Of a stretch of 13,924 nucleotides of DNA, positions 1 to 13,924 are shown in pieces. How positions within the stretch are numbered: position 1 is the first letter of the stretch; each line of letters begins with the position of its first letter. Location of the stretch: the NCBI GenBank assembly GCA_043750125.1, contig JAYVCD010000311.1, forward strand, positions 1 through 13,924. The letters run 5' to 3'. The position numbers and the translations under genes are program-made. The DNA is from Archangiaceae bacterium (lineage in GTDB: Bacteria > Myxococcota > Myxococcia > Myxococcales > Myxococcaceae). Below the pieces are notes generated by a model that saw only the letters and a program-made list of their open reading frames with translations, was not told the origin of the DNA and made no database searches.

Positions 1-200
1 GCGCCGCCGCCGACTCCTGCGCCGCCGCCCACGCCACCGAAGCTGTGGCAGGTGTTTCCGGGAATGCAGAGGTACCCATTGGGGCAGACGCCGCCGGGAT
101 CACAGACCAACCCTTCCGGGTCTGCCGTCAGGCTCATGCTGCATCCAGCAATGCCTGACGCCGCGAGGCTCAATGCGAGTCTGAATGCCAACGTTCTCAT
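1..200 (-). CDS. Cys-rich/Gly-rich lipoprotein, 5' part only (runs off the left edge; not in the ORF track)
   Basis: Manual translation from ATG at 200: MRTLAFRLALSLAASGIAGC-SMSLTADPEGLVCDPGGVCPNGYLCIPGNTCHSFGGVGGGAGVGGG. It has a lipobox (IAGC), a four-Cys module, a Gly-rich linker, AGGGG about 7 nt upstream, and no stop before the edge. Confidence 0.85.
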   Translation of the reverse strand, partial: MRTLAFRLALSLAASGIAGCSMSLTADPEGLVCDPGGVCPNGYLCIPGNTCHSFGGVGGGAGVGGG

Positions 201-420
201 TGAGGTGCCCCTGGGTCTCGTCCCCGGAAGCAGGAACGGCGCGCTTAAACGGCAAACGCGGCTCCGAGGTCAAGTGAGGCGGCCACCCTGTATCTCCTGA
301 GCGACAAGCCCGCACCACGCAGCCACGCCGTCCTTGCCAGGCCAAATCCGGCACCCGCACGGCCCACGCAAAGCGGTCAGCCAGCCGTCCCACAAATCCT
401 TCAAGGTGCGGAAAACGATG

Positions 421-445
421 GTCACACCCGGGTCGCGTCTGCCTA
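421..445 (+). promoter_or_regulatory. Putative ECF sigma-dependent promoter (GTCACA-N14-GCCTA) of the copper cluster
   Basis: GTCACA at 421-426 and GCCTA at 441-445. The same two boxes with the same spacing occur at 8174-8198 upstream of the ECF sigma gene. An in-frame GTG follows at 454. Confidence 0.55.
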
Positions 446-453
446 ATGCGCTT

Positions 454-1209
454 GTGAACACAGCATTTCCTCAATGGCGTCTGTCCCTGGTCGTCCTCGG
501 AGGCGCAATCGCAATCGCAATCGGATTCGGCTGCGCGACCATGCCCGCGCCGGTCCCTGTAGCGCTCGACCCCGCCAACCCAGAAGCAGAAACGGCGGAA
601 ATCTCGTCGACGCTGACGCCTCTGGTTGTACCCGGTCCCGAAAAGCCGGGAGACGGGTCGGCACTGCCTTCCGAGCCAACGGCAGAACCGGCGCACGCCG
701 GACACAACATGGCCGAGATGAAGAAGTCGGAGCCCATGGAAGGCAAGCCGTCGCCTCACGCCGGCCACGAGGTGGGCGGCGTGCTGGACTCAGAACAGCA
801 TTTGATGGGCGTCGTGACGCGCACTTCTGCGGGTGTGATCACCGTCCTGCTCGAGACAGGCTCCCCCGCTGTCGTGTTGATTGACACCCAGACGGTGTTC
901 GAACGCGGCGCAGCGAAAGCCACCTTCAAAAGCATCAAGAACGGTGAGCGGATCGTGGTCTATGCCACCCCCAAAGAAACCAAATGGCTTGCCCGAGTCG
1001 TGAAGCTTGGGTCCCCCTCATCGGAAGAGAAAGGTTCTGATGCGGGCACTCCTTCCGTGTCACCTGACTTTCCCATGAAAATGCCCGACGCGAAGAACCC
1101 CCACCAAGCCCAGCAATTCACCTGCCCGATGCACCCCGAGGTTCGCTCGTCGACTCAGGGCAAGTGCCCCAAATGCGGAATGAAGCTCGTGCCGGTTCCG
1201 GCGAAGTGA
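454..1209 (+). CDS. Heavy-metal-binding lipoprotein: His/Met-rich linker, DUF5666-like beta domain and C-terminal HMBD (CPMHPE...CPKCGM)
   Basis: Hydrophobic stretch with lipobox GFGC, HAGH twice, and C-terminal FTCPMHPEVRSSTQGKCPKCGMKLVP. The start is uncertain: GTG 454 or ATG 418, while the track's start at 334 is probably too long. The stop overlaps the next start (GTGA at 1206-1209). Confidence 0.85.
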   Translation: MNTAFPQWRLSLVVLGGAIAIAIGFGCATMPAPVPVALDPANPEAETAEISSTLTPLVVPGPEKPGDGSALPSEPTAEPAHAGHNMAEMKKSEPMEGKPSPHAGHEVGGVLDSEQHLMGVVTRTSAGVITVLLETGSPAVVLIDTQTVFERGAAKATFKSIKNGERIVVYATPKETKWLARVVKLGSPSSEEKGSDAGTPSVSPDFPMKMPDAKNPHQAQQFTCPMHPEVRSSTQGKCPKCGMKLVPVPAK

Positions 1210-2564
1210 AGCGTTCACTTCTGTTCGCCTTCCTGCTGGCCGGGTGCGCGACCCTTTCACCCGAACGCGGCCACGATCAGGTGGGGCTCCTGGTGGCAGA
1301 GCGCGGGGGTCCTTCCACCGGCTGGGAAAAAGGGTCGCCTGATCTGACCGTGATCTCCAATCGGGTCAACTCACTGCTCGCTCCGGGCCTCAGCCGCGCC
1401 AGCGCAGTCGCGATTGCGCTGATCAACAACCCTGGCCTTCAGGCGACGTACGAAGAGCTCGGCGTCTCGCAAGCCGACATGGTCCAGGCGGGTCTGCTCA
1501 AGAACCCCACCCTCGCAGGAAGTGTCGGCTTTCCACTCAACGTGGGAGCCATGACCGAGTTCGAATTTTCAATCCTTCAGGACATCGTCGATCTCGTCAC
1601 GCTCTCGTGGCGCATGGACGTTGCGAAGCAGCAGTTCAAGGCCAGCACTTTTCGGGTTGCCCAGCAGGCGCTCGACGTCGTGTCCGAAGTCAATCGCGCC
1701 TTCGTCACTTTCCAGGCCGAGCTGGAAATCGAAAAGCTCATTCGCAACCAAGTCGAAGGGGCTGAAGGTGCACACCTGCTTGCGGAAAAGCAGTTCGCCG
1801 TCGGAAACATCAACGCGTTGCTGCTGGCCAACGAGCAGGCGACCTATGCCCGCCTTCAGCTCGAGCTCATCCAATCGGAAGTCCGGGTCGCGACCTCCCG
1901 GGAGCACTTGAATCGCGCCCTGGGTCTGTGGGGCAAGTCTTCGCAATGGACAGTCGCTGGACCGCTGGCGGATCTTCCCCCCACCGACCCGTTGCCCGAC
2001 GTTCCGGAATCGATCGCGATCCGCCAACGGCTCGACCTGGCGGTCGCCCGAATGGACGCAGAAGTGATGGGGCAGATGGTCACCCTCGCGCGAAATACCC
2101 GGCTGTTCGGCCGAGTCGAAATCGGAGCACACGTTCACCGAGATTCCGACGGTCCCCAGCTCATCGGGCCCACTTTCTCGCTCGAGCTTCCGATCTTCGA
2201 TCAGCGGACGGCTTACATCGCGCGGCTCGAAGCTCAACGTGCCAGCGCCTCGCGCCGGGTCAGCGCGCTCGCGATCGAGATCCGTTCCAGAGTGCGTGAA
2301 GGCGTGCTCTCGCTCAAGGCTTCGAGGGCAATGGCTTCGTACCTGACCCACACCCTCGTCCCGCTGCGGGACAAGATCGTCGAGCAGTCGCAGCTTCACT
2401 ACAACGGGATGTTGCTGGGCCTCTTCGAGCTGGTCGCGACCCAAAGGGAAAGCAGCGACGCTCGCCGCAGTGCAATTCTCGCTCGCCGTGATTATTGGAT
2501 CGCACGCTTTGACCTCGAGAATGCACTGGGCAGCTCGCTTTCGCGTGGCAGCAGCGCTCAATGA
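1206..2564 (+). CDS. TolC/outer-membrane-factor family lipoprotein of the copper-cluster type
   Basis: GTG 1206 overlaps the upstream TGA. Lipobox MKRSLLFAFLLAGC; OMF motifs ALINNPGLQA, AGLLKNP and FSLELPIFDQ; helical repeats ending ARFDLENALG. Confidence 0.9.
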   Translation: MKRSLLFAFLLAGCATLSPERGHDQVGLLVAERGGPSTGWEKGSPDLTVISNRVNSLLAPGLSRASAVAIALINNPGLQATYEELGVSQADMVQAGLLKNPTLAGSVGFPLNVGAMTEFEFSILQDIVDLVTLSWRMDVAKQQFKASTFRVAQQALDVVSEVNRAFVTFQAELEIEKLIRNQVEGAEGAHLLAEKQFAVGNINALLLANEQATYARLQLELIQSEVRVATSREHLNRALGLWGKSSQWTVAGPLADLPPTDPLPDVPESIAIRQRLDLAVARMDAEVMGQMVTLARNTRLFGRVEIGAHVHRDSDGPQLIGPTFSLELPIFDQRTAYIARLEAQRASASRRVSALAIEIRSRVREGVLSLKASRAMASYLTHTLVPLRDKIVEQSQLHYNGMLLGLFELVATQRESSDARRSAILARRDYWIARFDLENALGSSLSRGSSAQ

Positions 2565-3148
2565 AGACCCGGCTGATTGTCATTGGGGTCGTGGGCGTGG
2601 TCGGTGCCCTCGCCGCCTTGATCTGGATCAAGGGACAAAACGGCTTCAGCGCGCGCGACGAGCCCTCGGGCCTCGAGAAGTTTGCTGCCGAAACAATGCG
2701 TTCGATTTCGATGCCTTCAGCGGCCAAGGCACTCAAGAGCCCCGAACGGGTCGACGACGCCCGCGTGGCCGGCGCGCGGATGCACTGGGCGGATCACTGT
2801 GCCACCTGCCACGCCAATGACGGCAGCGGCAACACGCCCATCGGGAAGAACCTCTTTCCCAAGCCGCCCGACATGCGTTCGAAGGTCACCCAGTCCAAAA
2901 CCGACGGCCAGCTGTTCTTCATCATCGAGAATGGAGTTCGGCTCACTGGAATGCCTGCCTGGGGCAGCGACGGAAATCACAGCGACGAGTCGTGGGCCCT
3001 GGTGGCATTCATCCGCCAATTGCCCCAGCTGACGGCAGAAGAGCTCGAGGCCATGAAAGCAATGAATCCACGATCCGCCCACGAATTGATGGAACAGAAG
3101 GAAGAGGACGACTTCCTTCGCGGAGATTCACCCTCACCGGAGAAATAG
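2561..3148 (+). CDS. Membrane-anchored monoheme cytochrome c
   Basis: N-terminal transmembrane helix, CATCH heme motif, GVRLTGMPAWG with the likely axial Met. The start overlaps the TolC stop. Confidence 0.9.
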   Translation: MKTRLIVIGVVGVVGALAALIWIKGQNGFSARDEPSGLEKFAAETMRSISMPSAAKALKSPERVDDARVAGARMHWADHCATCHANDGSGNTPIGKNLFPKPPDMRSKVTQSKTDGQLFFIIENGVRLTGMPAWGSDGNHSDESWALVAFIRQLPQLTAEELEAMKAMNPRSAHELMEQKEEDDFLRGDSPSPEK

Positions 3149-3150
3149 CC

Positions 3151-3525
3151 ATGAAGACCGCTCTGAACACCCTCACCGCAGTTGTGCTCTTGACCGGCTT
3201 CGCCGCCTTCGCTCACGGCGACGAGAAACATCTGAAAGGCATTGTCACCAAGGTCGAGGGCATGACCTTGACCCTCGCCATCGAAAAGGGTGAACCGCTG
3301 GTCGTCAACCTGGACGAAAAAACCGCATTCACCCGAGGGGCCGCCAAGGTCACGCTCCGGGACCTCGCCGTGGGAGACAAGGCTGTCATTCATGCGAAGG
3401 AACACGACGGGAAGATGATCGCGCACGAGGTGAAACTGGCGGCTGCGTCCAAACCCACTCACCCGGGCGCCGACGCAGGCACTGCAACCAAGACCGAGAA
3501 GGGACATGACAACCATCCTCACTGA
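3151..3525 (+). CDS. Small exported His-rich DUF5666-like (beta-barrel) protein, candidate metallochaperone
   Basis: ATG 3151 with GGAG upstream. Signal peptide ends AFA, giving a mature N-terminus HGDEKH. Pattern G-x-V-T-x..T-x-F-x-RG..L-x-VGD-x-V; His-rich tail GHDNHPH. Confidence 0.8.
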   Translation: MKTALNTLTAVVLLTGFAAFAHGDEKHLKGIVTKVEGMTLTLAIEKGEPLVVNLDEKTAFTRGAAKVTLRDLAVGDKAVIHAKEHDGKMIAHEVKLAAASKPTHPGADAGTATKTEKGHDNHPH

Positions 3526-4948
3526 GCCTCTGACCGGCGAACCCGAGACAACCGGCGCACCCAGGGGCGAGCAAGTCAGCCGTCGCAGCCTGCTGGTGAA
3601 CACCGGGGTCGCGGCCACCGGCGCGGCGCTCGTCGGCCTTCATGCTTCAAAGGCTGAAGCCGCATCGCCCGTTGGTTTCCTGACGCAGACCGTTGGCGGC
3701 GCCTTTGCGCCCAAAGCCCTGCCTCCGGGAATGCCGAACCGCGACTACATGCCGGTGATCGTCCCCAATGGGACCAAGGCCCCGTGGAAGATCGTCAATG
3801 GGGTGAAGGTGTTTCACCTCGTCGCAGAAGAATTCGAGCATGAATTTGCACCCGGGCTGAAAGCCTTTTGCTGGGGGTACAACAAGCAGGTCAACGGGCC
3901 GATTCTCGAAATGGTCGAGGGCGATCACGTTCGCATCTACCTCACCAATAAGTTGATCGCTCCCACCACCATCCACTGGCACGGATTTCTGATTCCGAAC
4001 GGGATGGACGGAGTCGGAGGCTTGAACCAGAGGGCCGTCCGTCCCGGAGAAACCTGCAGGTACGAGTTTGTTCTGGGGCAGCACGGAACACTGATGTTCC
4101 ACTCCCACCACGATGAAATGACTCAGATGGCCTTGGGCATGACGGGCATGGTCATCGTCCACCCCCGCAAGCCCAGGTCCCACGTCGACCGAGACTTCGC
4201 CCTCGTCCTTCATGAGTGGCGCATCGACCCCGGAGCCAGGCGCCCTGACCCCAACGAGATGACGGACTTCAACGTCCTCACCATCAATGGAAAGGCCTTC
4301 CCGGGGACGGCTGCGCTGGTCGTGAAGACCGGGCAGAAGGTGCGGATCCGTCTGGCAAACCTGGGCGCGATGGACCACCACCCGTTTCACATTCATGGGC
4401 TGAATTTCATCGTCACCGACACGGATGGCGGAGAAATTCCGAAGAGCGCTCAGTTCCCAGAGACCACGGTGCTCGTCGCGGTCGGGCAGACGCGCACCAT
4501 CGAGATGACGCCCCTCATTCCCGGAGACTGGGCGATGCATTGCCACATGACCCACCACGTGATGAACCAGATGGGTCACCGGCTGCCGAACATGATTGGC
4601 ATTGATCCCAGCCAGCTCGACGCCAAGGTTCAACGGGCGCTGCCCGGCTACATGACGATGGGCCAGGAAGGAATGGGAGACATGGGCGACATGGGAATGC
4701 CTGTGCCCGAGAACAGCATTCCGATGGTCGGCGCCAAAGGCAAACATGACTACATCACGATGGGTGGAATGTTCTCGATTCTCAAAGTGCGCGATCAGCT
4801 GACGAGCTACGAAGACCCCGGCTGGTACGAGAATCCAAAGGGGACGATGGCCAGCCTGGTCACTTCGGCAGAATTGGCCCGCGACAAGATCGATACCGCC
4901 GCTCCCTCGACTTCCGCGCCCGGTGATGTTCGCGGCGTCGGGGTGTGA
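3506..4948 (+). CDS. Tat-exported two-domain multicopper oxidase (type B pattern) with Met-rich C-terminal extension
   Basis: Twin-arginine motif SRRSLL; Cu motifs IHWHG, MFHSH, HPFHIHG and HCHMTHHVMNQM. The T1 Cys is present only in domain 2. The tail contains MTMGQEGMGDMGDMGM. Confidence 0.93.
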   Translation: MTTILTEPLTGEPETTGAPRGEQVSRRSLLVNTGVAATGAALVGLHASKAEAASPVGFLTQTVGGAFAPKALPPGMPNRDYMPVIVPNGTKAPWKIVNGVKVFHLVAEEFEHEFAPGLKAFCWGYNKQVNGPILEMVEGDHVRIYLTNKLIAPTTIHWHGFLIPNGMDGVGGLNQRAVRPGETCRYEFVLGQHGTLMFHSHHDEMTQMALGMTGMVIVHPRKPRSHVDRDFALVLHEWRIDPGARRPDPNEMTDFNVLTINGKAFPGTAALVVKTGQKVRIRLANLGAMDHHPFHIHGLNFIVTDTDGGEIPKSAQFPETTVLVAVGQTRTIEMTPLIPGDWAMHCHMTHHVMNQMGHRLPNMIGIDPSQLDAKVQRALPGYMTMGQEGMGDMGDMGMPVPENSIPMVGAKGKHDYITMGGMFSILKVRDQLTSYEDPGWYENPKGTMASLVTSAELARDKIDTAAPSTSAPGDVRGVGV

Positions 4949-6681
4949 CGACCCCCCGCCCGGTGCGAAAGCCACTTTCGACTGTATTCGCGCTCCTTCT
5001 GCTCGGACTCGTCGGCTGTCGTACGACGCAGTCCTCGGTACGGCCCTCGGCAAACGAAGACCGGGTGGCCGTCGTTGCAGATCCTCCCGCCGCGCCGGGG
5101 TCGATGGCGAGCAACCTCTCGGTCGCGTCCAATTCACTGCTGCTCATCTGGGTCGAGCCTGCGGAAGTCGCGGGCAGCTTCCGCCTTCGGTTCTCACAGT
5201 GGCGCGCCGGCGCGTGGGCCGCTGCAACGACCATCGCTGAACATCCTTCGATCGTCGCCAACTGGGCGGACACCCCCTCGGTGCGCGAAGCGGTCGACGG
5301 GACGCTCGTCGCCCAATGGTCCGAGCGCCTGGACGACAGTTCCCATGCGACGAATGTCCTGGTTGCCCGGTCTACGGACAGTGGAAAGACCTGGGTTGGT
5401 TTGGGACCTGCTCACGACGACGACACTCAGACCGAGCATGGCTTCGTGTCATTGCTCGCCGACGACCCGTCGGTGCGCGCCTTCTGGCTCGACGGACGTG
5501 AGACCGGGGGAGGCATGCGCAACCGTGGGGCAATGACTCTGCGAACGGCGAAAATTTCAGAGCGGGTGATCGAAAGTGAAGTCCTCGATGACAGCGTCTG
5601 CGATTGCTGCGGCACTTCGGCAGCAATGACCTCGCAAGGGCCGATTGTCGTCTTTCGTGACCGCCTTCCCGGAGAGATCCGCGACATATCCATCATTCGT
5701 CGGGTAGGCGGAGCCTGGACCGCACCCAGACCCGTGCACGCGGACGGCTGGAAGATCCCCGGTTGCCCGGTCAATGGCCCCGCCGTCGCTGCCGAAAAAA
5801 GTCGCGTCGCCGTGGCCTGGTTTACCGATGCGGCTGGAAGAGCCGTGGTGAAGGTGGCTTTCTCAATCGACGCCGGCGCCACTTTCGCCGAGCCCGTCGA
5901 AGTGGATGCACCACGCGGGCGGGTCACCCCGATGGGGCGCGTGGGCGTCGTGCTCGACGATCACGACGGGGCGTTCGTCAGTTGGATGGCGTCCAACCGC
6001 GAGCAGGCGCAAGTGCTGGTTCGCCGCGTCATTCCGGCCGGCCGTCGAAGCAGCCCGGTGGTCCTGGCCCAAAGCCAGTCGAACCGGGACAGCGGGTTTC
6101 CCAGGCTGGCCCGGTCAACGCGAGAGCTTTTCGTCGTCTGGACCGAAGCGAGCACTCCTTCTCACCTTCGCTTTCAAGCCGTGCCGCTCAGCGCGTTGCC
6201 TGCTGCGACCCAGAGCGCGACTCTTCCGTCTGTGCAAGAGGTGGCTGTTTTGACGGTGGACTCATTGATGCCCGACTACTCGGCTCAAACTCTCGAGGGG
6301 AAAGACGTGTCTGTCTCGTTGTTGCGCGGGCAGGTCGTATTGCTCAACTTTTGGGCGACCTGGTGCGAGCCGTGCCGGGCCGAGCTTCCCACGCTCGCAA
6401 TGATTTATCAGCGCTATGCCTCGCGCGGATTGCAGGTGCTGGGTGTCAGCCTCGATGCTCAGCAGACTCCGGCTCAAGTAAAGTCCTTCGCCGACCGCCG
6501 AAAGGTGCCCTACCTGCTCTGGTTGGACTCTCAAGATCTCGCTTCGCGCAAGCTGGGGATCGCCACCCTGCCAGTGACCGTGTTGATCAGACGGGATGGC
6601 ACCGTTGCATGGAGCCAGGTGGGCGCCATCGGGGAAGACGATCAGTCGCTCAGTTTGGCATTGGAGAGCGCTTTGAGGTAA
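4945..6681 (+). CDS. Lipoprotein fusion: BNR/Asp-box (sialidase-like propeller) domain plus TlpA/ResA-like thioredoxin domain
   Basis: GTGA overlap with the oxidase stop; lipobox LVGC; Asp-boxes RSTDSGKTW and FSIDAGATF; VCDCC and GCPVNGP motifs; C-terminal VVLLNFWATWCEPCRAELP...LPVT. Confidence 0.88.
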   Translation: MTTPRPVRKPLSTVFALLLLGLVGCRTTQSSVRPSANEDRVAVVADPPAAPGSMASNLSVASNSLLLIWVEPAEVAGSFRLRFSQWRAGAWAAATTIAEHPSIVANWADTPSVREAVDGTLVAQWSERLDDSSHATNVLVARSTDSGKTWVGLGPAHDDDTQTEHGFVSLLADDPSVRAFWLDGRETGGGMRNRGAMTLRTAKISERVIESEVLDDSVCDCCGTSAAMTSQGPIVVFRDRLPGEIRDISIIRRVGGAWTAPRPVHADGWKIPGCPVNGPAVAAEKSRVAVAWFTDAAGRAVVKVAFSIDAGATFAEPVEVDAPRGRVTPMGRVGVVLDDHDGAFVSWMASNREQAQVLVRRVIPAGRRSSPVVLAQSQSNRDSGFPRLARSTRELFVVWTEASTPSHLRFQAVPLSALPAATQSATLPSVQEVAVLTVDSLMPDYSAQTLEGKDVSVSLLRGQVVLLNFWATWCEPCRAELPTLAMIYQRYASRGLQVLGVSLDAQQTPAQVKSFADRRKVPYLLWLDSQDLASRKLGIATLPVTVLIRRDGTVAWSQVGAIGEDDQSLSLALESALR

Positions 6682-6755
6682 GGGATTGGGAAAGAAATCG
6701 CCCCAGGTCATTCGACAACGACCGCACAATTCTCAACGATTTTCCAAGGAAACAG

Positions 6756-7250
6756 ATGCCAAGAACTGAATTCGCCTTCCGTATTGCCTCACTGGTTGTG
6801 CTCTTTGCCGCGGGGGCCTGTGGCTCGGTGCCAACGATTGAGCACGACGCCGGCACCGGAGAAGATTCGGGAATCATCCCGGTCGACTCGGGCATCGCCG
6901 ATGCCGGGCCGGTCGATGCCGGGCCGGTCGATGCGGGGCCGGTCGATGCCGGGCCGGTCGATGCGGGCCCCCCGACCCCGGGCATCCCCGTTGTCACCGC
7001 TGCAACTGTGGTGGTCCATGGGACACACCAGATTACCTGGCAGTTGCCTGCCTCGGGCTGCTCAACCCTCTCGCTGATGATGAAGGTCGGCGCCGCCGGG
7101 ACCTACTCCGTGGTGAAGATGGTCACGGGGGTGGCTACATCGACGCAATACGGCCCGGGCCACGCGTTGGGCACTTACTGCTACGAGGTCGTCTGCATTC
7201 TGGGCGGGACCACCTCGTCTGCATCCAACGAAAAGTGTGCCACCCAGTGA
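6756..7250 (+). CDS. Lipoprotein with (DAGPV)n linker and small FN3-like beta domain
   Basis: ATG 6756 with AAGGA RBS; lipobox AGAC; DAGPV repeats; ITW..P, YCYEV and SSASNE are FN3-like features; four Cys in the domain. The track's start at 5763 is a spurious extension. Confidence 0.8.
   Translation: MPRTEFAFRIASLVVLFAAGACGSVPTIEHDAGTGEDSGIIPVDSGIADAGPVDAGPVDAGPVDAGPVDAGPPTPGIPVVTAATVVVHGTHQITWQLPASGCSTLSLMMKVGAAGTYSVVKMVTGVATSTQYGPGHALGTYCYEVVCILGGTTSSASNEKCATQ
6900..6971 (+). repeat. 15-bp coding tandem repeat (GATGCSGGGCCGGTC), about 4.8 copies, encoding DAGPV
   Basis: Units start at 6900, 6915, 6930, 6945 and 6960 (partial). Confidence 0.95.
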
Positions 7251-8134
7251 TGACGAAGTGGGCCTTGTTGATGGCATTGGCAGGCTGCGGCACCGCAGCA
7301 CCTGGCCCGACCCGATACCCACCGACTGGAAAGACGAAGACCTTTGAGCTGACGGCTCGAGATGTCGAGTGGACCGTGGCACCTGGCGCGGTCTATTTCG
7401 CCTGGACCTACAACGGCACAATCCCCGGACCGCAGCTGGACGTCACCGCGGGCGACACCGTCGTCGTGAACTTGAGAAACGAAACCCTCCACCCGGTTTC
7501 GGTTCACACCCATTTGGTCGAATTTGAGCAGACCGCCGACGGGGTTGATGCCGCGTCAGTTGCTCAGCCCGGACAGACGGTGAGCGTGACGTGGAAGACG
7601 TCCTTTGCCGCGGCGGTGCCCTACCATGACCATGCGGACGAAGGCGATGGGGTCGCCCGAGGGCTGATCGGGGCTTTGATTGTTCACGCGCCCGACGAAA
7701 AGCCTGCCAACGAGCACGTGGTTGTTCTGACCGATTTCGACACTGCCAATTTCAAGAGTCTCCCGGGCGTGGCCGACCCCGTGACCGGCGCGTTCCCTGA
7801 TGCTGGAACCTACCGGGGGGCGCACCAATACATGCACACCCTCAACGGCAAGGCCTACCAGGAATCGGTGCCACCCTTTACGGGCACGGTCGGTGAAATC
7901 AGTCGCTGGCGCGTAGTGAGCATCGGCCAGGAAGTTCATACCTGGCACATCCACGGGCACCGCTGGGTCGACGCAGACGGTCAATTGACGGACAACATCC
8001 AACTTGGGCCGGGCATGTACCGCACCTTCGAATTCATGGAAGACAAGGCAGGGGACTGGCTCGTGCACTGCCATGTGCCCACGCACATGCAAGGCGGAAT
8101 GATGGCGCGGTACCGGGTCGCGGGCGCGCGTTAG
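7250..8134 (+). CDS. Small laccase-like (SLAC-type, type B) two-domain multicopper oxidase, lipoprotein
   Basis: Start (ATG 7250 or GTG 7247) overlaps the upstream TGA. Lipobox LAGC; motifs SVHTH, YHDH, HTWHIHGHRW and HCHVPTHMQGGM. Confidence 0.9.
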   Translation: MTKWALLMALAGCGTAAPGPTRYPPTGKTKTFELTARDVEWTVAPGAVYFAWTYNGTIPGPQLDVTAGDTVVVNLRNETLHPVSVHTHLVEFEQTADGVDAASVAQPGQTVSVTWKTSFAAAVPYHDHADEGDGVARGLIGALIVHAPDEKPANEHVVVLTDFDTANFKSLPGVADPVTGAFPDAGTYRGAHQYMHTLNGKAYQESVPPFTGTVGEISRWRVVSIGQEVHTWHIHGHRWVDADGQLTDNIQLGPGMYRTFEFMEDKAGDWLVHCHVPTHMQGGMMARYRVAGAR

Positions 8135-8173
8135 TCCCGAGTCTCTCGTGTCGGTACCAGATGTCACTTTGCC

Positions 8174-8198
8174 GTCACAGCCAGACTCACCCCGCCTA
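8174..8198 (+). promoter_or_regulatory. Putative autoregulatory ECF promoter (GTCACA-N14-GCCTA)
   Basis: GTCACA at 8174-8179 and GCCTA at 8194-8198, 12 nt before the sigma GTG. 15 of 25 positions are identical to 421-445. Confidence 0.55.
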
Positions 8199-8210
8199 TA
8201 GGCAGGGGCA

Positions 8211-8741
8211 GTGCCGACCTTCGATTCCCAGGCCGTCAATCAGGCGTTGCGCCGGCTCCAGAAAGGAGATCGCTCAGTTGCGCAGCTCGTCTTCTCATCC
8301 CTCTGGCCAATCGTTGCTTCGTTCTGTCGCAGCGCCCTGGGAGACGCCTCGCAGGATGCGGCGCAAGAGACGCTGCTGAAAATGTTTCAGCAGGCACACC
8401 GATTCCGGGCGGGCGCAGACGCCGTCGCGTGGGCCCTGGAGATTGCGACCTGGGAATGTCGAACCGAGCTGCGCCGTCAGGGGCGTGAGCGGGCTGCCCC
8501 GCTGTCGGACGCAGGGCAAATCGAAGCCGGCCCCGATGTGGTTGGCCTGCTCGAGAAGGAACAGCTTGCTGGCGCTGTCAGACAAAGCATCGCGCACCTC
8601 GCTCCCGACGATCAGGCGCTGGTGACCTCTGTCCTCGACGAGACGTTTCCTGCTGGGTCAGGGGCGGCAGCACGCAAACGCAAAGAGCGGGCACTGACCC
8701 GGTTCAAGCAGGCATGGAGGTCGTCGTATGGATTTGATTGA
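8211..8741 (+). CDS. ECF-type RNA polymerase sigma-70 factor
   Basis: Region 2 motifs GDRS..QLV, DAAQETLLKMF and AWALEIATWECRTELRR. Shortened region 4: IAHLAPDDQAL...RKRKERALTRFK. 176 aa. Confidence 0.88.
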   Translation: MPTFDSQAVNQALRRLQKGDRSVAQLVFSSLWPIVASFCRSALGDASQDAAQETLLKMFQQAHRFRAGADAVAWALEIATWECRTELRRQGRERAAPLSDAGQIEAGPDVVGLLEKEQLAGAVRQSIAHLAPDDQALVTSVLDETFPAGSGAAARKRKERALTRFKQAWRSSYGFD

Positions 8742-9267
8742 ACAGCAGCTGTTGACGCAGGCGATGGCGGGCTACGAACGCTCGAGACTCAAGAATGCAG
8801 TCTTGGCAGCGTTACCCGGCTTGTTGTTGCCTTTGATTGCTTTCGCCGTGGGCGGAAGGTTGATGGCTTCTGTCACGCTGGGGCTGGCTGTTCTGGCCTC
8901 GGTGGTGTGGCTTGCGTGGCGAGGCCAGGCTTGGGGAAGGTCGGTACCGGGGGGCCTCGCCGCAGGTGTGTTTCCACTGGGTCTGGCGCTGGCCGCTCAA
9001 CACATCGGTCACGTCTGCACCCCTCAAGGGTGCACTTCCTTGTGCGTGCCGATGTGCGCTGCCGGAGGCGTCATCGCCGGGGCGGTGGTTTCTGCCTTTG
9101 CGCGTCTGTCACCTTCGCCGCGGATCACGCTCGGGTTCGGAGCGGCGCTTAGCCTCGCCGTCGGGGCGATGGGCTGCTCGTGCGTCGGCTCTGCCGGAAT
9201 GCTCGGAATGGCCGCGGGACTGAGCGCCAGCACCGGGCTGGCGTTGGTCATTCAAAAAATCAGGTGA
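8728..9267 (+). CDS. Cys-rich integral membrane protein, putative anti-sigma factor
   Basis: Overlaps the sigma stop by 14 nt; about 5-6 hydrophobic helices; HIGHVCTPQGCTSLCVPMC and MGCSC motifs. The anti-sigma role is inferred from position. Confidence 0.75.
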   Translation: MDLIEQQLLTQAMAGYERSRLKNAVLAALPGLLLPLIAFAVGGRLMASVTLGLAVLASVVWLAWRGQAWGRSVPGGLAAGVFPLGLALAAQHIGHVCTPQGCTSLCVPMCAAGGVIAGAVVSAFARLSPSPRITLGFGAALSLAVGAMGCSCVGSAGMLGMAAGLSASTGLALVIQKIR

Positions 9268-9294
9268 TTGAGGAACAGACCTGGCTGTGTGGCC

Positions 9295-10230
9295 TCATTT
9301 CACCGCCCCGGGCTGGCCTTCCGTTTTGGTCCCCTTCGACAATGCGTCGAGCAACGCATCAACCAGGTCGAAGTAGCTCTTGATCGAAGGGTTCGCGCCT
9401 ACGTCTGAAGGCACCAAGACCACCTTGGCGCCCGCTTTCTCAGCCACGGTGTCTGCAATGGCTCGATTGAAGAACGATTCGACGACGATCAACGGCACCT
9501 TGTTGGCGCGCATCATCACAATCAATTGGGCGAGATGATCCGGCGAGGGGGGGATTCCTGGCTTGTTTTCGAGGTAACCCTGCTCATCCAGCTTGAGCCA
9601 CTTCGAAACGTAGCTCCAGCTCTTGTGGTAGGTGACAATTTTGGCCCCCGCCAAAGGCCTGGCCAGGGTGTTCCAACCCACCGCCTTCGCCTTCAGGTCA
9701 GTGACAAACTGGTTGAACCGGCCTTCGAAATAGTCGTGGTCCGCAGGCCGCAACTGCCCGAGGCGCTCGGTGATCCCCTTGGCGATTCGCACCGCATTGA
9801 CTGGAGGAATCCAATAGTGGGGGTTGCCCGACGGGTGGATGTCTCCTTGACCTCGATCGACCTTGGTTGCAGGCACATCGAGCAACTCGATCAACGTAGA
9901 GCTGTCGAGGTTGCCACGTTGCCCAGTGAGAATTCGGTCATTGCGTGATCCGAGCACCAACGGTGGCAACCAGCCGATCTCCAATTCGACGCCGACATGA
10001 ATCAAGAGGTCGGCCCGATTCAGGATCAACATCAGGTTCGGCTTCGGCTCGACGAAATGCGGGTCCTGATAGCCGTGCGAAAGACTTTGAACCTCGACCT
10101 TGTCGCCACCGACCATCCGGGCCAGGTCGGCAAACGTCTCGATGCTGGTAACAACTTTCAACTTTTCTTCTGCGCTGGCCGGCACCGAAGCACCGAGCAG
10201 GCAGAACAGGGGAAGAAGAAGACGCGTCAT
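9295..10230 (-). CDS. ZnuA/TroA-family (cluster A-I) metal ABC substrate-binding protein
   Basis: ATG 10230 with AAGGA RBS; signal peptide ending ASA; KVVTS, QDPHF, GDIHPSGNPHYW, YHKSWSY and KPGIPPSPDHL motifs. Confidence 0.93.
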   Translation of the reverse strand: MTRLLLPLFCLLGASVPASAEEKLKVVTSIETFADLARMVGGDKVEVQSLSHGYQDPHFVEPKPNLMLILNRADLLIHVGVELEIGWLPPLVLGSRNDRILTGQRGNLDSSTLIELLDVPATKVDRGQGDIHPSGNPHYWIPPVNAVRIAKGITERLGQLRPADHDYFEGRFNQFVTDLKAKAVGWNTLARPLAGAKIVTYHKSWSYVSKWLKLDEQGYLENKPGIPPSPDHLAQLIVMMRANKVPLIVVESFFNRAIADTVAEKAGAKVVLVPSDVGANPSIKSYFDLVDALLDALSKGTKTEGQPGAVK

Positions 10231-10277
10231 GGGAATAATCCTTCGCAAATTGTGAGCTTCGAGACCGATGGCAGTGA

Positions 10278-11552
10278 TCAAAACGGATGCGCCCCATGTG
10301 CGCCGATGGCGATTTGCAGCTGCAAGTAGCCCGCCCAGTTGGGCCGGCCCAACAGGAAAAATTGGGTCGGCGATGGCTGGGTTTCGCGCTCGACTTCCAG
10401 GCGAAGCTGAGCGAACTCACTCGCAATGAATGTCAGGCTCCCGGCGGTTCGCGACACGCGGGTCTGGAGCTCCGAGAATGGAAGGCCCAGCAGATCCTGC
10501 CGAAGCCCGACGAACCAGTTGCGGCCAATCTGTGCCACCAGCTGGGTGTAGCCCGCCCCGTCGATGGCTGTCTCTTCGGAATTGTTTCTACTCAATACTT
10601 CCCGGAAGAAAAATTCGGTGGTCCAGGTGAGGCTGAAATAGCTGCCTACGTCGTTGGCCGGTTTGTACTTCACGTAAAGGTCAAAGCCTTGAAGCAGCGT
10701 GCGCGAACCGACCCGCACGAGTCCGGTTTCTGAGCTCACTCCCGCCGTCTTGCCAAATGCCGCGTTCAAGCCGGCCGAGATGCTCACCGATTCTGCGAGA
10801 GGGAAGAACGTCGACAGCTTCCCGGTGTACGTCAAGTCTGTCCGCTCGCCGCCTCCAAACGACGACAGGTGCTCGAGCCCCCCGGGGGGGCCCACGCTGA
10901 TGGCTTCGGCGCTGAGCTGAAGAAAGACCGGCGTGGGCGCGAGCCACGAGACCTGCACTGCCGGCGAACGAAGGCCATCCACCCCCAGGAAGGCTTCGTT
11001 CAACAACGGCCGCCGAACGAAATTCTGAACGTGGGTGTGCTGGCCATTGAGGCGCCCGATGTTCGATCTGAAAATCCCCGCCCTGACCTGCAGATCAAAC
11101 GGCAACGACGTGCTCGTCGCGAAGGCCTCTTCGACCTCGACGCCTTCAAGGTTGGGAACCGTGAAGAACACGTCGGCTCGGAAAAACGGGTCGACGATGG
11201 CCTGGAAGGCGAACTCGACCTCTTGAACCGTGACCCCGGCGGGGTGCTCGATGGCCCCTCCTTTGAGATCCGGGTCTGCTCCGCCTCGGCTGTAGCTGGT
11301 CGTTCCTGCGGCCCCGGCTACCGAATCGACGATGACCGAAATGTCAGGGTTCAAACTTTGAAACGCGCGCACCAAAGGGTTGGTGGTCACTTGCGGCCCG
11401 GCGGTGGTCGCGCCGCGCCCGGCAGCGGCGTCGATCGCGTTGTCCAGCTCGCTTTGCTCGACGATTCCAGCGTCGGTTGTTCCGCCATCGAGCTCCTGTG
11501 CCGAGGCTCCGGCGCCCAGGACCAACACCACTGCCATCCAAGAAGAGTTCAT
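10278..11552 (-). CDS. Outer-membrane beta-barrel metal-uptake protein (family ending GAHGAHxF, commonly beside ZnuA-like genes)
   Basis: Signal peptide, NPDISV, QEVE..FQAIVDPFF, EEAF, LNGQHTH, amphipathic strands and C-terminal IGAHGAHPF ending in Phe. Directly upstream of the SBP gene. Confidence 0.8.
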   Translation of the reverse strand: MNSSWMAVVLVLGAGASAQELDGGTTDAGIVEQSELDNAIDAAAGRGATTAGPQVTTNPLVRAFQSLNPDISVIVDSVAGAAGTTSYSRGGADPDLKGGAIEHPAGVTVQEVEFAFQAIVDPFFRADVFFTVPNLEGVEVEEAFATSTSLPFDLQVRAGIFRSNIGRLNGQHTHVQNFVRRPLLNEAFLGVDGLRSPAVQVSWLAPTPVFLQLSAEAISVGPPGGLEHLSSFGGGERTDLTYTGKLSTFFPLAESVSISAGLNAAFGKTAGVSSETGLVRVGSRTLLQGFDLYVKYKPANDVGSYFSLTWTTEFFFREVLSRNNSEETAIDGAGYTQLVAQIGRNWFVGLRQDLLGLPFSELQTRVSRTAGSLTFIASEFAQLRLEVERETQPSPTQFFLLGRPNWAGYLQLQIAIGAHGAHPF

Positions 11553-11739
11553 TTGTTGTTCTCAGTTCTACGAGTCGTGTGAGGCCAGCCGACGCGAGGA
11601 CGACCGCGCTGCGCAGGCGAAGAGTTCCGTCAGGTGTGATGTTTCCAAACAGCAGTGGGTGGGCTTGTGGGAATGGAACGAAGCAACCCAGTCATCCGGG
11701 TGGGCAGCGATCACGATCCGACAAGAAAACGGCTGGCGA

Positions 11740-12144
11740 CTACGCGGGTGGAGAACCCTTCGGAGCGAGCAACAACAACGCAACCCCGGTTCGCGCAGCC
11801 CTCCCGGGCGGGACTCCAGCGACGACGAGGCGGTTTGAACAGACCTCGAAGGTCTGCACCGCGAGGTGACTTAGAAAGTCATTTCGTCGCGAAGCAACCA
11901 GCAGGCAATGATCGTGATCGTGGTTCGCCGGAACCTGTGCCTGGCGAACCTCGGGCCGCGCACCGGGCGTCAGCGCCAGGATCTGGGCGTCTTCGACGTG
12001 AATGAGCTCGCCGTGCTCGGGGCAAGTGACGTGTTGCACCGCCACCAGGTGCGCGAACAATGACAACTGGCCGGCCACGAGAAGAATCGAAAGCGCGAAC
12101 GAGGGCGCGGCCCGACGATGCAATGGCTGGCACGTGCGCGACAT
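11740..12144 (-). CDS. Small His/Cys-rich protein with N-terminal hydrophobic segment and C-terminal APKGSPPA; candidate metal-sensing leader (DUF2946/CruR-like)
   Basis: 134 aa; hydrophobic FALSILLVAGQLSLFAH; HVTCPEHGELIH; HDHDHC; ends LLLLAPKGSPPA-stop. Lies 187 nt upstream of the metal-uptake genes on the same strand. Confidence 0.75.
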   Translation of the reverse strand: MSRTCQPLHRRAAPSFALSILLVAGQLSLFAHLVAVQHVTCPEHGELIHVEDAQILALTPGARPEVRQAQVPANHDHDHCLLVASRRNDFLSHLAVQTFEVCSNRLVVAGVPPGRAARTGVALLLLAPKGSPPA

Positions 12145-12155
12145 CTTCGGAAACG

Positions 12156-12185
12156 AGCCTCGCCGCGCCCCGGTACCGGGGTCAA
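12156..12185 (-). promoter_or_regulatory. Putative sigma70-type promoter (TTGACC-N18-GAGGCT) with overlapping 14-bp palindrome CCCCGGTACCGGGG
   Basis: On the minus strand TTGACC is at 12185-12180 and a weak -10 (GAGGCT) at 12161-12156. The palindrome spans 12168-12181 and the ATG is at 12144. Confidence 0.4.
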
Positions 12186-12314
12186 GGGGTAGATGTTGAT
12201 CTTCGATCTTCGCTCCAAACTGCCACGCTCACCCTCGGCCGCACAGAGAGCGTTCATTCTTTGTTTGAGCGTTACCGCCACAGCGATTGTACGGTCGTGG
12301 GGAAAGGAACTGGC

Positions 12315-13217
12315 ATGGATACCAAGCGAAGGGCCAAAGCATTGCTGAAGGGCTTGGTTCCTCCGGTCGCGTGGGAAGTGTTGCGACAGGCGATGCAGAC
12401 CCTCGCCCCGTCCGAAACGGGGTGGTTTGTCGCCGAACGCGGGGTGGGCGAATTTTCGAAGTCCGTGACCGGTTGGAATGAGCACGAGCTGGCCAGGATC
12501 TACGAGCGTCGGTGGCCTCTCTTCGAACAAGTCCTCTCAACTCCGGTGCCCCCGGCCTTCGCTTCCGAGGCCGACTCGCCGGTCTTTGATCCAGACAGCG
12601 ACGTTGTCTCGGCCCAGAGTCTGTTTCGTCAGAACTCGGTGTTGGCTTTGATTTTCGCGGTGGCCCACGCCAGCAGGCAGCGCACAATGCTCTCCGTGCT
12701 CGACTGGGGAGGAGGCGTCGGCCACCAGTACGGTCTGCTGCGTACGCTGCTTCCAGATCTGAAGCTCGACTACACCTGCTTTGATCTGCCCGTTTCGGTG
12801 GACTTCGGTTCGAAGCGGTTTCCCGAAATTCGTTTTACGTCGGACTTTGGGTGCCTCGACCACCGATACGACCTGGTGGTGGCCAACGGCTCACTTCACT
12901 GTTTCGAGCATTGGCAAAAGGTGGCGGACCAACTGGCCACTGCGGCCAATGACTTCGTGTTCATCAGCATGCTTCCCGTCAGGCTCGAGGGTCCTTCGAT
13001 CGTGATGATCCAGCGCTACCTGAAGCCCGATGGTAAGTCTTATTCCGAGCCCGAGTGGTTCATCTCGCGCGACGAGCTGCTGTTGCGGTTTCCCCAAGAC
13101 AGTTGGGAGCTGAAGCGCGAGGTGATTTGCGGATTTTCACCCGTGGTCCAGGGCTTCGACGCGCGGGTGGACTACCGCGGGTTTTTGTTCGGTCGCAGGG
13201 CGCGGCTGGGCACCTGA
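12315..13217 (+). CDS. Class I SAM-dependent methyltransferase-like protein (resembles the TIGR04325 type)
   Basis: ATG 12315 with AAAGGA RBS; motif I VLDWGGGVG, YTCFDLP and YDLVVANGSLH. Confidence 0.8.
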   Translation: MDTKRRAKALLKGLVPPVAWEVLRQAMQTLAPSETGWFVAERGVGEFSKSVTGWNEHELARIYERRWPLFEQVLSTPVPPAFASEADSPVFDPDSDVVSAQSLFRQNSVLALIFAVAHASRQRTMLSVLDWGGGVGHQYGLLRTLLPDLKLDYTCFDLPVSVDFGSKRFPEIRFTSDFGCLDHRYDLVVANGSLHCFEHWQKVADQLATAANDFVFISMLPVRLEGPSIVMIQRYLKPDGKSYSEPEWFISRDELLLRFPQDSWELKREVICGFSPVVQGFDARVDYRGFLFGRRARLGT

Positions 13218-13284
13218 ACCGGCGCGTCGGCATTGGCCTCGACAGACCGCGAATGCTTTCGGGGGGCGTGTTATCGCCAATCAG

Positions 13285-13914
13285 ATGGCACCTCGATTGC
13301 GCGGGTTGGTTTTGGGCGTCGCCTGCCTCGCTGTCGGATTCGCTGCAGGTCGACTTTCACCGGCCTTCACGGTTCCCGCGCCCGACTCTCCACCCAGGGC
13401 GATCGCTCCTTGCCCACAACCCGCACCAGAGGTGCAGGGCCCGCCCCCCCGCCTGGCTGGAGAGCCCGTTCGAACCGTGGCTGCGCCGATCGTCGTCGAT
13501 CCCCACGACGCGACGGCTTGCCCTGCGCTCGCAACCGCAGTGTCGACGTGCGCGCGCCAGCTCGACAGCTCTCAGCTCGAGCTCAAACACCGCGACGAAT
13601 TGCGCACCGTCCGCGAAGGCACGCCCGTCCCGCCCCCGACCTCTGCCCCTCCACCACGGTTCACGCCGAAGACAATTCGGGACGCGGTGGCTCTGGCGTT
13701 TACCCAGTCGAAAGTTCCCGGTGGTGTTCAGGGCATCGACTGCGCCGAGTACCCCTGCATCATTTTCGGAAGAATTCGCGGGGCGGAAGATCAGATGGAA
13801 AAGCTCGAGGAAGCGGGCGCGCTCGCAGCTGATCCGGCCGCTCTGAAACTGATCCACCTGGGCGGCGTGAAACTGATCCACCCCAAGTTGAACAATCAGA
13901 CTACCGCTTCTTGA
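13285..13914 (+). CDS. Hypothetical exported/membrane-anchored protein, probably 3'-truncated by an IS insertion at about 13830
   Basis: N-terminal hydrophobic segment, Pro-rich linkers and DCAEYPC. The last ~28 codons (DPAALKLIHLGGVKLIHP...) read through IS-end repeats. Confidence 0.7.
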   Translation: MAPRLRGLVLGVACLAVGFAAGRLSPAFTVPAPDSPPRAIAPCPQPAPEVQGPPPRLAGEPVRTVAAPIVVDPHDATACPALATAVSTCARQLDSSQLELKHRDELRTVREGTPVPPPTSAPPPRFTPKTIRDAVALAFTQSKVPGGVQGIDCAEYPCIIFGRIRGAEDQMEKLEEAGALAADPAALKLIHLGGVKLIHPKLNNQTTAS

Positions 13915-13924
13915 GTTCTTGTCC
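13830..13924. mobile_element. Terminus of an IS21-family insertion sequence (partial, runs off the right edge)
   Basis: Starts 5'-TG at 13830. Two perfect 15-bp direct repeats TGAAACTGATCCACC at 13844-13858 and 13868-13882 (24-bp period), typical of IS21-family multiple terminal repeats. No transposase in the window. Confidence 0.72.

Follow-up and report, generated by a model that had tools for sequence, protein, structure and literature searches.

Introduction

To our knowledge, metal-sensing leader peptides have been studied in only two cases, CruR and CutF, both concerned with copper. Here we analyse a 134-amino-acid open reading frame (ORF) with an ATG start on the minus strand (11740..12144) of a 13,924-nucleotide (nt) stretch of DNA from an Archangiaceae bacterium (Myxococcota; assembly GCA_043750125.1, contig JAYVCD010000311.1, positions 1 to 13,924), a stretch that we call the window throughout. 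The ORF precedes genes for a porin-like protein and a ZnuA-family protein, and an earlier note on this DNA had proposed it as a metal-sensing ribosome-arrest leader for a metal-uptake operon.

According to the CruR report (PMC9426467), which bears out the earlier note's account of this Bordetella system, the CXXC and RAPP motifs of CruR (Bp2923) of Bordetella pertussis lie 45 residues apart, a distance conserved within 1-2 residues; indels in this region impair regulation, which works through Rho and a 162-nt spacer. Arrest at the RAPP of CruR was shown in vitro, and RSPP was reported to be arrest-permissive, in a second study (PMC12992588). CutF of Rhodobacter capsulatus carries CxxxC and PPP motifs and lies upstream of a detoxifying multicopper oxidase gene, from which it is separated by a short spacer with a stem-loop shielding the Shine-Dalgarno sequence (PMC9973294); a preprint describes stalling at the CutF PPP that is sensitive to elongation factor P (EF-P) (bioRxiv 10.1101/2025.02.05.636593). 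The survey that accompanied the CutF work includes some clusters with His-only motifs and non-copper neighbours, and inferred attenuator or Shine-Dalgarno-shielding variants for its clusters (PMC9973294).

Results

We hold with moderate confidence that the ORF in the window is a cis-acting, probably zinc-sensing arrest-peptide leader, in which metal occupancy of the nascent chain would set the expression of the genes downstream. Re-reading the sequence confirmed all the features first described for it, namely a signal- or transmembrane-like N-terminus, clustered metal ligands and a terminal motif. The chain begins with a basic segment followed by a hydrophobic one (Kyte-Doolittle 19-residue maximum of 2.07 at residues 18-36), and AlphaFold2 predicts a transmembrane or signal-anchor helix at residues 13-35 (12040..12108; block pLDDT 87-95), preceded by the basic residues HRR; hydropathy maximum and helix both indicate an N-terminal signal or Nin-Cout transmembrane segment. 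The first ligand motif, assigned from family alignments and the model, spans residues 32-49 (11998..12051), reads FAHLVAVQHVTCPEHGELIH and follows the pattern H-x5-HxxCxEHGELIH, with H32, H38, C41, H44 and H49 as candidate ligands. The second, assigned from alignments and codons, is HDHDHC at residues 75-80 (11905..11922), where the family consensus is HxH[DE]HC. A linker or 'ruler' of residues 81-126 (11767..11904), delimited by spacing counts and column entropy, leads to APKGSPP, the arrest motif proposed from its conservation and codon usage, at residues 127-133 (11746..11766), which only Ala134 and the TAG stop codon (11740-11742) follow. The C-terminus reads LLLLAPKGSPPA-stop, and the tail codons are GCT CCG AAG GGT TCT CCA CCC GCG TAG. 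In an AlphaFold model built with the family alignment, the only structured elements are the helix at 13-35, a beta-hairpin at residues 38-49 that coincides with the first ligand motif, and a short helix at 81-92 (predicted template-modelling score, pTM, 0.40).

This ORF is not a chance frame: its GC content by codon position (0.73/0.47/0.73) resembles that of the adjacent genes, the same genome encodes a paralog on another contig (E 4e-20), which ends LLLRAPKSSPPA-stop, and the family is large. The sole point in favour of a chance or non-functional ORF, or of an element acting purely at the RNA level, is missing annotation, since 120/120 family members among the matches listed are called 'hypothetical protein' or unnamed and lack a Pfam domain. 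Thousands of homologs whose amino acids are conserved while synonymous codons change refute this explanation; the coding GC pattern and the lack of an Rfam match also speak against it, and we give it practically no credence.

A word-indexed search returned six homologs, every one ending in APK[GT]SPP plus 1-4 residues. When a profile built from 8 members was scored against 1.84 billion cluster representatives, 3,447 representatives matched at E<=1e-3 and 1,981 at E<=1e-10. The sole match among proteins of 269-2,000 residues, like the longer representatives, differs by N-terminal extensions only and keeps the motif at its C-terminus. The profile matches 148 of 301 sampled Myxococcota genomes, one of the 148 being unpublished and used for no other result, and usually finds two copies; among high-quality genomes of the phylum the family is present in 128/254, and its members are spread over 64 of 137 genera. 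Of the 115 genomes from the taxonomic family to which the window belongs, 95 are matched, mostly with two copies. Named records include Minicystis rosea, a Haliangium metagenome-assembled genome (MAG), Polyangia MAGs, Myxococcus xanthus AM003, M. vastator, Pyxidicoccus, Corallococcus and Citreicoccus.

The earlier note's reading hinged on the terminal motif and the His/Cys ligands being conserved among homologs, and both are. Motif and spacing statistics were taken from 154 family sequences, all of which (154/154) share an N-terminal transmembrane helix, HxxCxEHGE, HxH[DE]HC, a linker of fixed length and a terminal [AS]PKx[SP]P[PT]. In a 100-sequence alignment H38, C41, H44, C80, A127, P128, K129, P132 and P133 are invariant, and H32, G45, E46, H77, H79 and S131 are at least 90% conserved, with a mean top-residue frequency of 0.70 across the first ligand motif. 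The tail is APKxSPP in 151/154 members and a one-residue variant (APKxPPP, APKxSPT or SPKxSPP, once each) in the other three, and it stands 1-8 residues before the stop: one residue follows it in 102 members, two in 22, three in 11, four in 9 and five to eight in 10. The x position holds N, T, S or G in 137/154 members and A, Q, C, H, L or V in the others, never Arg. Arg at -3 occurs in 0/154 members, the basic residue being the invariant Lys at -4, and the description of the tail in the earlier note as a variant of RAPP does not strictly hold.

Across the family the two ligand motifs stand anywhere from 32 to 55 residues apart, but from the last Cys of HxH[DE]HC to the last Pro 47 members have 52 residues and 76 have 53, together 123/154, and 147/154 fall within 50-56; in the other 7 the search pattern missed the second motif. 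Window residues 93-120 of the linker carry 3.4 bits of entropy per column at an occupancy of 0.98, compared with 0.33 bits for the last seven motif columns. The fixed ligand-to-proline spacing of the CruR family is likewise found in the leader family, and a linker free in sequence and fixed in length between ligand site and terminal Pro-Pro is the property found to be important in CruR.

These features also have to be read against a different explanation, in which the ORF encodes a stable small inner-membrane protein that acts in trans as a periplasmic zinc chaperone, buffer or sensor, handing metal to ZnuA, the porin or TonB-dependent receptors, with APKxSPP serving for docking or as a degradation signal. 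The confident transmembrane helix, a hairpin resembling a metal knuckle and seven His/Cys/Glu positions that are invariant or nearly so are what such a protein would be expected to show. Most of the chain is, however, predicted to be unstructured, and a protein that folds or docks would not readily account for 28 linker residues of free sequence and fixed length. The placement of the motif 1-8 residues from the stop, with skewed codons, is a further argument against a trans-acting protein, which on balance we consider unlikely.

Codons were counted at 53 non-identical loci, many of them closely related and therefore not independent observations. No synonymous Pro or Ser codon is missing from the motif, which argues for selection at the level of the peptide. 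At the same time, Ser131 is encoded by TCT at 30/53 loci, compared with 20/353 Ser codons in the ORF bodies; Ala127 is encoded by GCT at 17/53 (ORF bodies, 74/767 Ala codons), and the Pro-Pro pair uses CCT in 32/106 cases (ORF bodies, 54/427 Pro codons). AT-ending codons make up 0.34 at the motif and 0.17 in the ORF bodies, and the window motif itself includes GCT, TCT and CCA. At Ala127, Ser131 and both prolines, codons ending in T are strongly favoured, in genomes that otherwise avoid them. Such a skew fits a site where decoding kinetics matter; whether through decoding speed or tRNA identity is our guess.

The earlier note had placed the ORF 187 nt upstream of an outer-membrane protein paired with a ZnuA-like protein, and the spacer (11553..11739, minus strand), a beta-barrel model and a PF01297 match agree with this. 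The first downstream gene (10278..11552, minus strand) has its ATG at 11552, on the same strand as the leader, and encodes a 424-amino-acid protein identified as a porin-like outer-membrane beta-barrel by model, Foldseek and alignment; Pfam and NCBIfam scans gave no match for this protein or for the leader ORF. Its AlphaFold model is a beta-barrel of ~16 strands (pTM 0.69), for which Foldseek returned Omp32, OprP and other porins at E ~1e-9 with TM scores up to 0.67. The porin-like protein and its homologs, which occupy the corresponding place at other loci, carry conserved His motifs, NxxHxHxWDF and a C-terminal GAHGAHxF, and are always paired with ZnuA; the family may be a candidate zinc-selective outer-membrane channel.

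The next gene (9295..10281, minus strand) encodes a ZnuA-family substrate-binding protein of the zinc type (PF01297, E 7e-48); among proteins of solved structure it is closest to the zinc-specific ZnuA from Synechocystis (1PQ4/2OV1, E 1e-21). The His residues of DPH, PHxW and xHxSW, which we take to be the zinc ligands of ZnuA, align between the two proteins. From this downstream ZnuA, zinc appears to be the best-supported metal. No second PF01297 gene was detected in this genome, which is 89% complete, and ~110 nt 3' of the paralogous leader lie genes for an ATP-binding cassette (ABC) ATPase and an ABC-3 permease, that is, ZnuC and ZnuB. Since the only ZnuA and the ZnuC/ZnuB pair are each preceded by a leader, both halves of what is apparently a single Znu importer stand behind leaders.

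The context of the family was scanned through 70 downstream ORFs from 41 loci, 39 of them distinct. A porin-like protein without a Pfam match followed by ZnuA was found at 8 loci, an ABC_tran protein followed by an ABC-3 protein at 4, and a TonB-dependent receptor at 7, 6 of these with an N-terminal TonB_C domain before the plug. At 4 loci only a Pfam-less first gene of ~430-480 amino acids was visible, three of which align with the window porin; one locus has a tetratricopeptide-repeat (TPR) protein, and at another the filter chose the wrong ORF, the neighbour, read by eye, beginning like a TonB_C protein. Two small proteins without Pfam matches follow the leader at 14 Myxococcaceae loci, and at one locus of this type the first of them is a lipoprotein with a His-rich C-terminus. 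Pfam-nameable uptake genes were present at 21/41 loci, counting the window and one complete Myxococcaceae operon. The conserved position upstream of metal importers, another element of the earlier proposal, held to the extent that leaders head metal-uptake operons wherever the neighbour could be named. The co-occurrence with several different uptake modules could also be explained by an accessory protein shared among them. What such a trans-acting protein would not lead one to expect is that the leader gene is the first on its strand at every locus scanned, with long spacers (up to ~350 nt) that are not those of translational coupling.

In two complete Myxococcaceae genomes two leader copies face each other across ~10 kb, and one of the facing copies heads an operon with the order leader-porin-ZnuA-x-ZnuC-ZnuB. 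At loci L055 (G218:C1:8231600-8243800) and L056 (G118:C1:3462800-3474800), in large Myxococcaceae genomes, convergent leaders bracket a ~10-kb cluster with the full znu operon on one side and, on the other, genes for a His-rich lipoprotein, small basic and Cys-containing proteins and a TPR protein; the cluster also holds an isochorismatase gene, with Rieske and GTP cyclohydrolase I genes nearby. The first gene after the leader at L009, L011, L017, L027, L029 and L038 encodes a TonB-dependent receptor with PF03544 fused before the plug, an unusual architecture that seems typical of leader-associated receptors.

Composition, folding and Rfam content were analysed for the spacer between leader and porin. 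In the window this spacer is rich in C and poor in G (0.35 and 0.24), the composition expected of a Rho loading site, and it is unstructured relative to shuffled sequences (z -0.06, or +1.24 with flanks). An Rfam scan of the spacer gave no family, only a sub-threshold small-RNA match inside the porin gene, and a terminator scan of the window region gave one weak site inside the leader, not above shuffles. In 45 distinct loci whose predicted neighbour lies at a distance of 40-400 nt, spacers have a median length of 128 nt, C outnumbers G in 37/45 (mean difference 0.055), and the spacers fold better than dinucleotide shuffles (mean z -1.61, with 15/45 below -2 and 4/45 above 0), the last two comparisons being made without a genome-wide control. 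One spacer, at locus L031, contains a perfect GC hairpin, CCCCCTCCCCGC-TTTG-CGGGGAGGGGG (fold z-score -5.3), whose 3' arm holds the Shine-Dalgarno sequence GGAGG, 3 nt ahead of the ATG start codon of the porin homolog. This arrangement, seen in one branch of the family, resembles that of CutF.

The family-wide tendency of spacers to be more structured than shuffles, together with this hairpin directly before an ATG, is what would be expected if the polarity and read-out were the opposite and resembled those documented for CutF (PMC9973294; bioRxiv 10.1101/2025.02.05.636593), with metal prolonging the stall, the ribosome melting a stem-loop that shields the next ribosome-binding site, and the operon turned on by metal. 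Against this, the targets are importers, which cells switch off when metal is plentiful; the window spacer has no recognisable Shine-Dalgarno hairpin; and spacers of 100-350 nt place most hairpins too far away for a ribosome stalled two codons short of the stop. We judge a CutF-like polarity to be improbable.

Pairing of the arrest-site codons with the start of the next gene was suggested by the minimum-free-energy fold of the window and by a four-locus alifold (2/48 pairs compensatory). This candidate was rejected on the duplex energies and start-region percentiles given below, in tests that used crudely predicted start codons.

The only recurrent Pfam family among leader matches was DUF2946 (PF11162), with 25/100 members matching at E<=10 and 10/99 at E<=0.05. 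The best score was 21.6 bits, compared with a gathering cut-off of 23.7 that 0/100 members reach, and the window leader itself did not match DUF2946 even at E<=10. The alignments are collinear and nearly full-length, covering profile positions ~5-110 of 117. In a protein-language-model atlas the window leader falls among unnamed Myxococcota clusters, with a DUF2946-labelled cluster further down the ranking (features 0.93, structure TM 0.47). PF11162 gave 3 marginal matches in 201 Myxococcota genomes, and a six-frame scan for a Cys/His motif with a terminal RAPP or PP found no canonical DUF2946-like ORF among them; genuine DUF2946 sequences were found neither in the window's genome nor on plasmid pMOL30. 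From these alignments we read the leader family as a probable divergent sister of DUF2946 that replaces it in Myxococcota. The earlier note had called the ORF analogous to CruR but distinct from it: its ligands and tail are indeed distinct, but mere analogy does not do justice to the collinear sub-threshold matches, which make a remote homolog the more probable description. That this nearest family includes two proven cis-acting leaders is a further point against a stable trans-acting protein.

The remainder of the window is a copper-type cluster that is transcribed separately and encodes two multicopper oxidases, an HMBD protein, a cytochrome c, an outer-membrane efflux protein and an extracytoplasmic function (ECF) sigma factor. 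At 8211-9267 (plus strand) the sigma factor gene overlaps the start of a gene for a 179-amino-acid multi-pass membrane protein with the Cys clusters HVCTPQGCTSLCVPMC and GCSCVG and no Pfam match, which may be a metal-responsive anti-sigma factor in the copper cluster. A 578-amino-acid protein (4945-6681, plus strand), whose gene overlaps translationally with that of the preceding multicopper oxidase, carries a thioredoxin/ResA-like domain at its C-terminus (residues ~433-565); its long N-terminal part gave no Pfam match. At ~6880-6960 (plus strand), in the frame of a long ORF at 5763-7250, a putative lipoprotein contains the tandem peptide repeat DAGPV x5.

Discussion

We propose that the N-terminal helix would target or anchor the nascent leader in the inner membrane, and that the ligand clusters H32/H38/C41/H44 and H77/H79/C80 would emerge from the ribosome or translocon as translation proceeds. 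On arrival of the ribosome at Pro132-Pro133, with a single sense codon still to be read, the tail A-L-x-x-L-A-P-K-x-S-P-P would stall peptide-bond formation, with the last ligand 53 residues from the peptidyl-transferase centre and presumably just outside the exit tunnel or translocon. Without metal the stall would persist and the operon would be on, in the window probably because the stalled ribosome blocks Rho on the C-rich, unstructured spacer; at other loci the stall would probably remodel structured spacers, as attenuator or Shine-Dalgarno-shielding variants. With metal the ligands would fold and the resulting pull would release the stall, the ribosome would terminate and downstream expression would drop. 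A CruR-like polarity, in which metal turns the operon off, is more likely because the targets are importers, and we infer it from CruR, which also controls an importer. The stall, the sensed metal, the sensing site and the role of Rho are likewise proposals.

Several observations weigh against an arrest-peptide leader. Di-proline in an xSPP context is by itself the type of site that EF-P normally resolves, and the arginine that defines RAPP is missing from the whole family. A stable metal-binding protein could likewise have invariant ligands and a membrane anchor, and the stall and its downstream effect are read from sequence and analogy. At the RNA level, no conserved RNA switch was found, the window spacer is unstructured, and the excess of C over G in spacers comes without a genome-wide control. 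The proposed pairing between arrest site and downstream start did not stand out: duplex energies compared with control segments gave a mean z of +0.16 (n=53), and the start region had a median percentile of 0.62 (n=52), with 4/52 loci at or below 0.1 and the window at 0.75. The 14 Myxococcaceae loci have downstream genes outside any Pfam family. The genome has three Fur-family genes, so that ordinary Zur control is possible.

Raw Myxococcus RNA-seq reads from one run (X23), placed on the orthologous leader-porin region of M. xanthus AM003 (L070:250-2650), showed an even depth on the two strands, at ~12-58 per strand and bin, and no clear drop in depth followed the leader in that single run; one orientation rose weakly over the 5' half of the leader. 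Three older RNA runs consist of contigs that span the entire leader-porin stretch, without expression information. The lack of a stalling signal in this one, uninformative run is compatible with a stable protein acting in trans.

If the leader acts as we propose, APKxSPP would be a new, Arg-independent arrest module that, together with the 52-53-residue ruler and the His/Cys site, would form a zinc-gated translational switch over essentially the whole of zinc acquisition in Myxococcota, with its own copy for each operon. We put forward this broader picture tentatively, as quite possible but short of probable. Such a switch would cover the porin and ZnuA, ZnuC/ZnuB, TonB-dependent receptors and the His-rich lipoprotein, and would explain how separate znu operons are coordinated in myxobacteria. 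It would be the first zinc-sensing arrest peptide, and the first natural nascent chain whose zinc-dependent folding supplies the releasing force.

The concept is already known, whereas the motif, ligand set, metal and clade appear to be new: a literature search found the CruR, CutF and RAPP papers and nothing on this leader family, on myxobacterial leaders or on zinc. The family would extend the principle to zinc uptake, to another phylum, and to another arrest motif and ligand chemistry. With thousands of natural variants that keep the tail invariant and the ruler fixed, the family is well suited to studying how a signal passes from the ligands to the peptidyl-transferase centre. Since the family occurs in the genetically tractable Myxococcus xanthus, the hypothesis is directly testable there.

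The leader layer can be set beside several described systems. Zur-repressed znuABC operons have the same targets (ZnuA, ZnuC, ZnuB and TonB-dependent receptors) and the same expected logic of repression by zinc. However, Zur acts on promoters, whereas each operon here is headed by a leader that is translated and brings its own set of ligands, and among inverted repeats upstream of the leaders, examined as candidates for a common operator of the Zur-box kind, none was present at more than 2 of 53 loci; a Zur layer and a leader layer may coexist in the genome.

With CutF, the window ORF shares the four features by which the survey filtered candidates, namely fewer than 150 amino acids (134), a PP in the last 15 residues (132-133), an N-terminal signal (the transmembrane helix) and a same-strand neighbour within 1,000 nt (a 187-nt spacer). 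The main text of that survey (PMC9973294) contains 0 occurrences of Myxococcota, ZnuA or zinc, a count that covers the main text only, and some members of the leader family may belong to one of its 29 clusters. The leader differs from CutF in that its targets are importers and in that the window spacer is long, unstructured and without a stem-loop shielding the ribosome-binding site.

The RAPP/RGPP peptides ApdA, ApdP and SecM-RAGP (PMC10951233; PMC12992588) resemble the leader in their C-terminal Pro-Pro with a small residue at -2. In both cases this motif lies close to the C-terminal end of a short protein, secreted or membrane-bound, whose gene precedes the regulated one. Their core, R-[AGSD]-P-[PG], is not found in the leader, whose motif is preceded by an invariant Ala-Pro-Lys, and their targets are Sec/YidC genes, in contrast to the metal-uptake genes considered here.

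The closest parallel is CruR. Both are small exported or membrane proteins encoded by the first gene of a metal-import operon, for a TonB-dependent transporter in the case of CruR and for the same class at 7 loci here; both have a long spacer, 162 nt in CruR and 187 nt for the window leader; both keep a constant spacing between a ligand motif and a terminal Pro-Pro, which lies a few residues short of the stop; and they share a poorly structured predicted fold and a weak collinear similarity at the level of hidden Markov models. No leader reaches the Pfam threshold, and the family has no CXXC or CxxxC Cys pair, carrying HxxCxEHGE and HxH[DE]HC instead of CXXC and APKxSPP, without an Arg at -3, instead of RAPP. 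The distance from last Cys to last Pro is 52-53 residues here, compared with 49 in CruR as calculated from the published positions 93 and 142, and the genes downstream point to zinc rather than copper, in Myxococcota rather than in Pseudomonadota.

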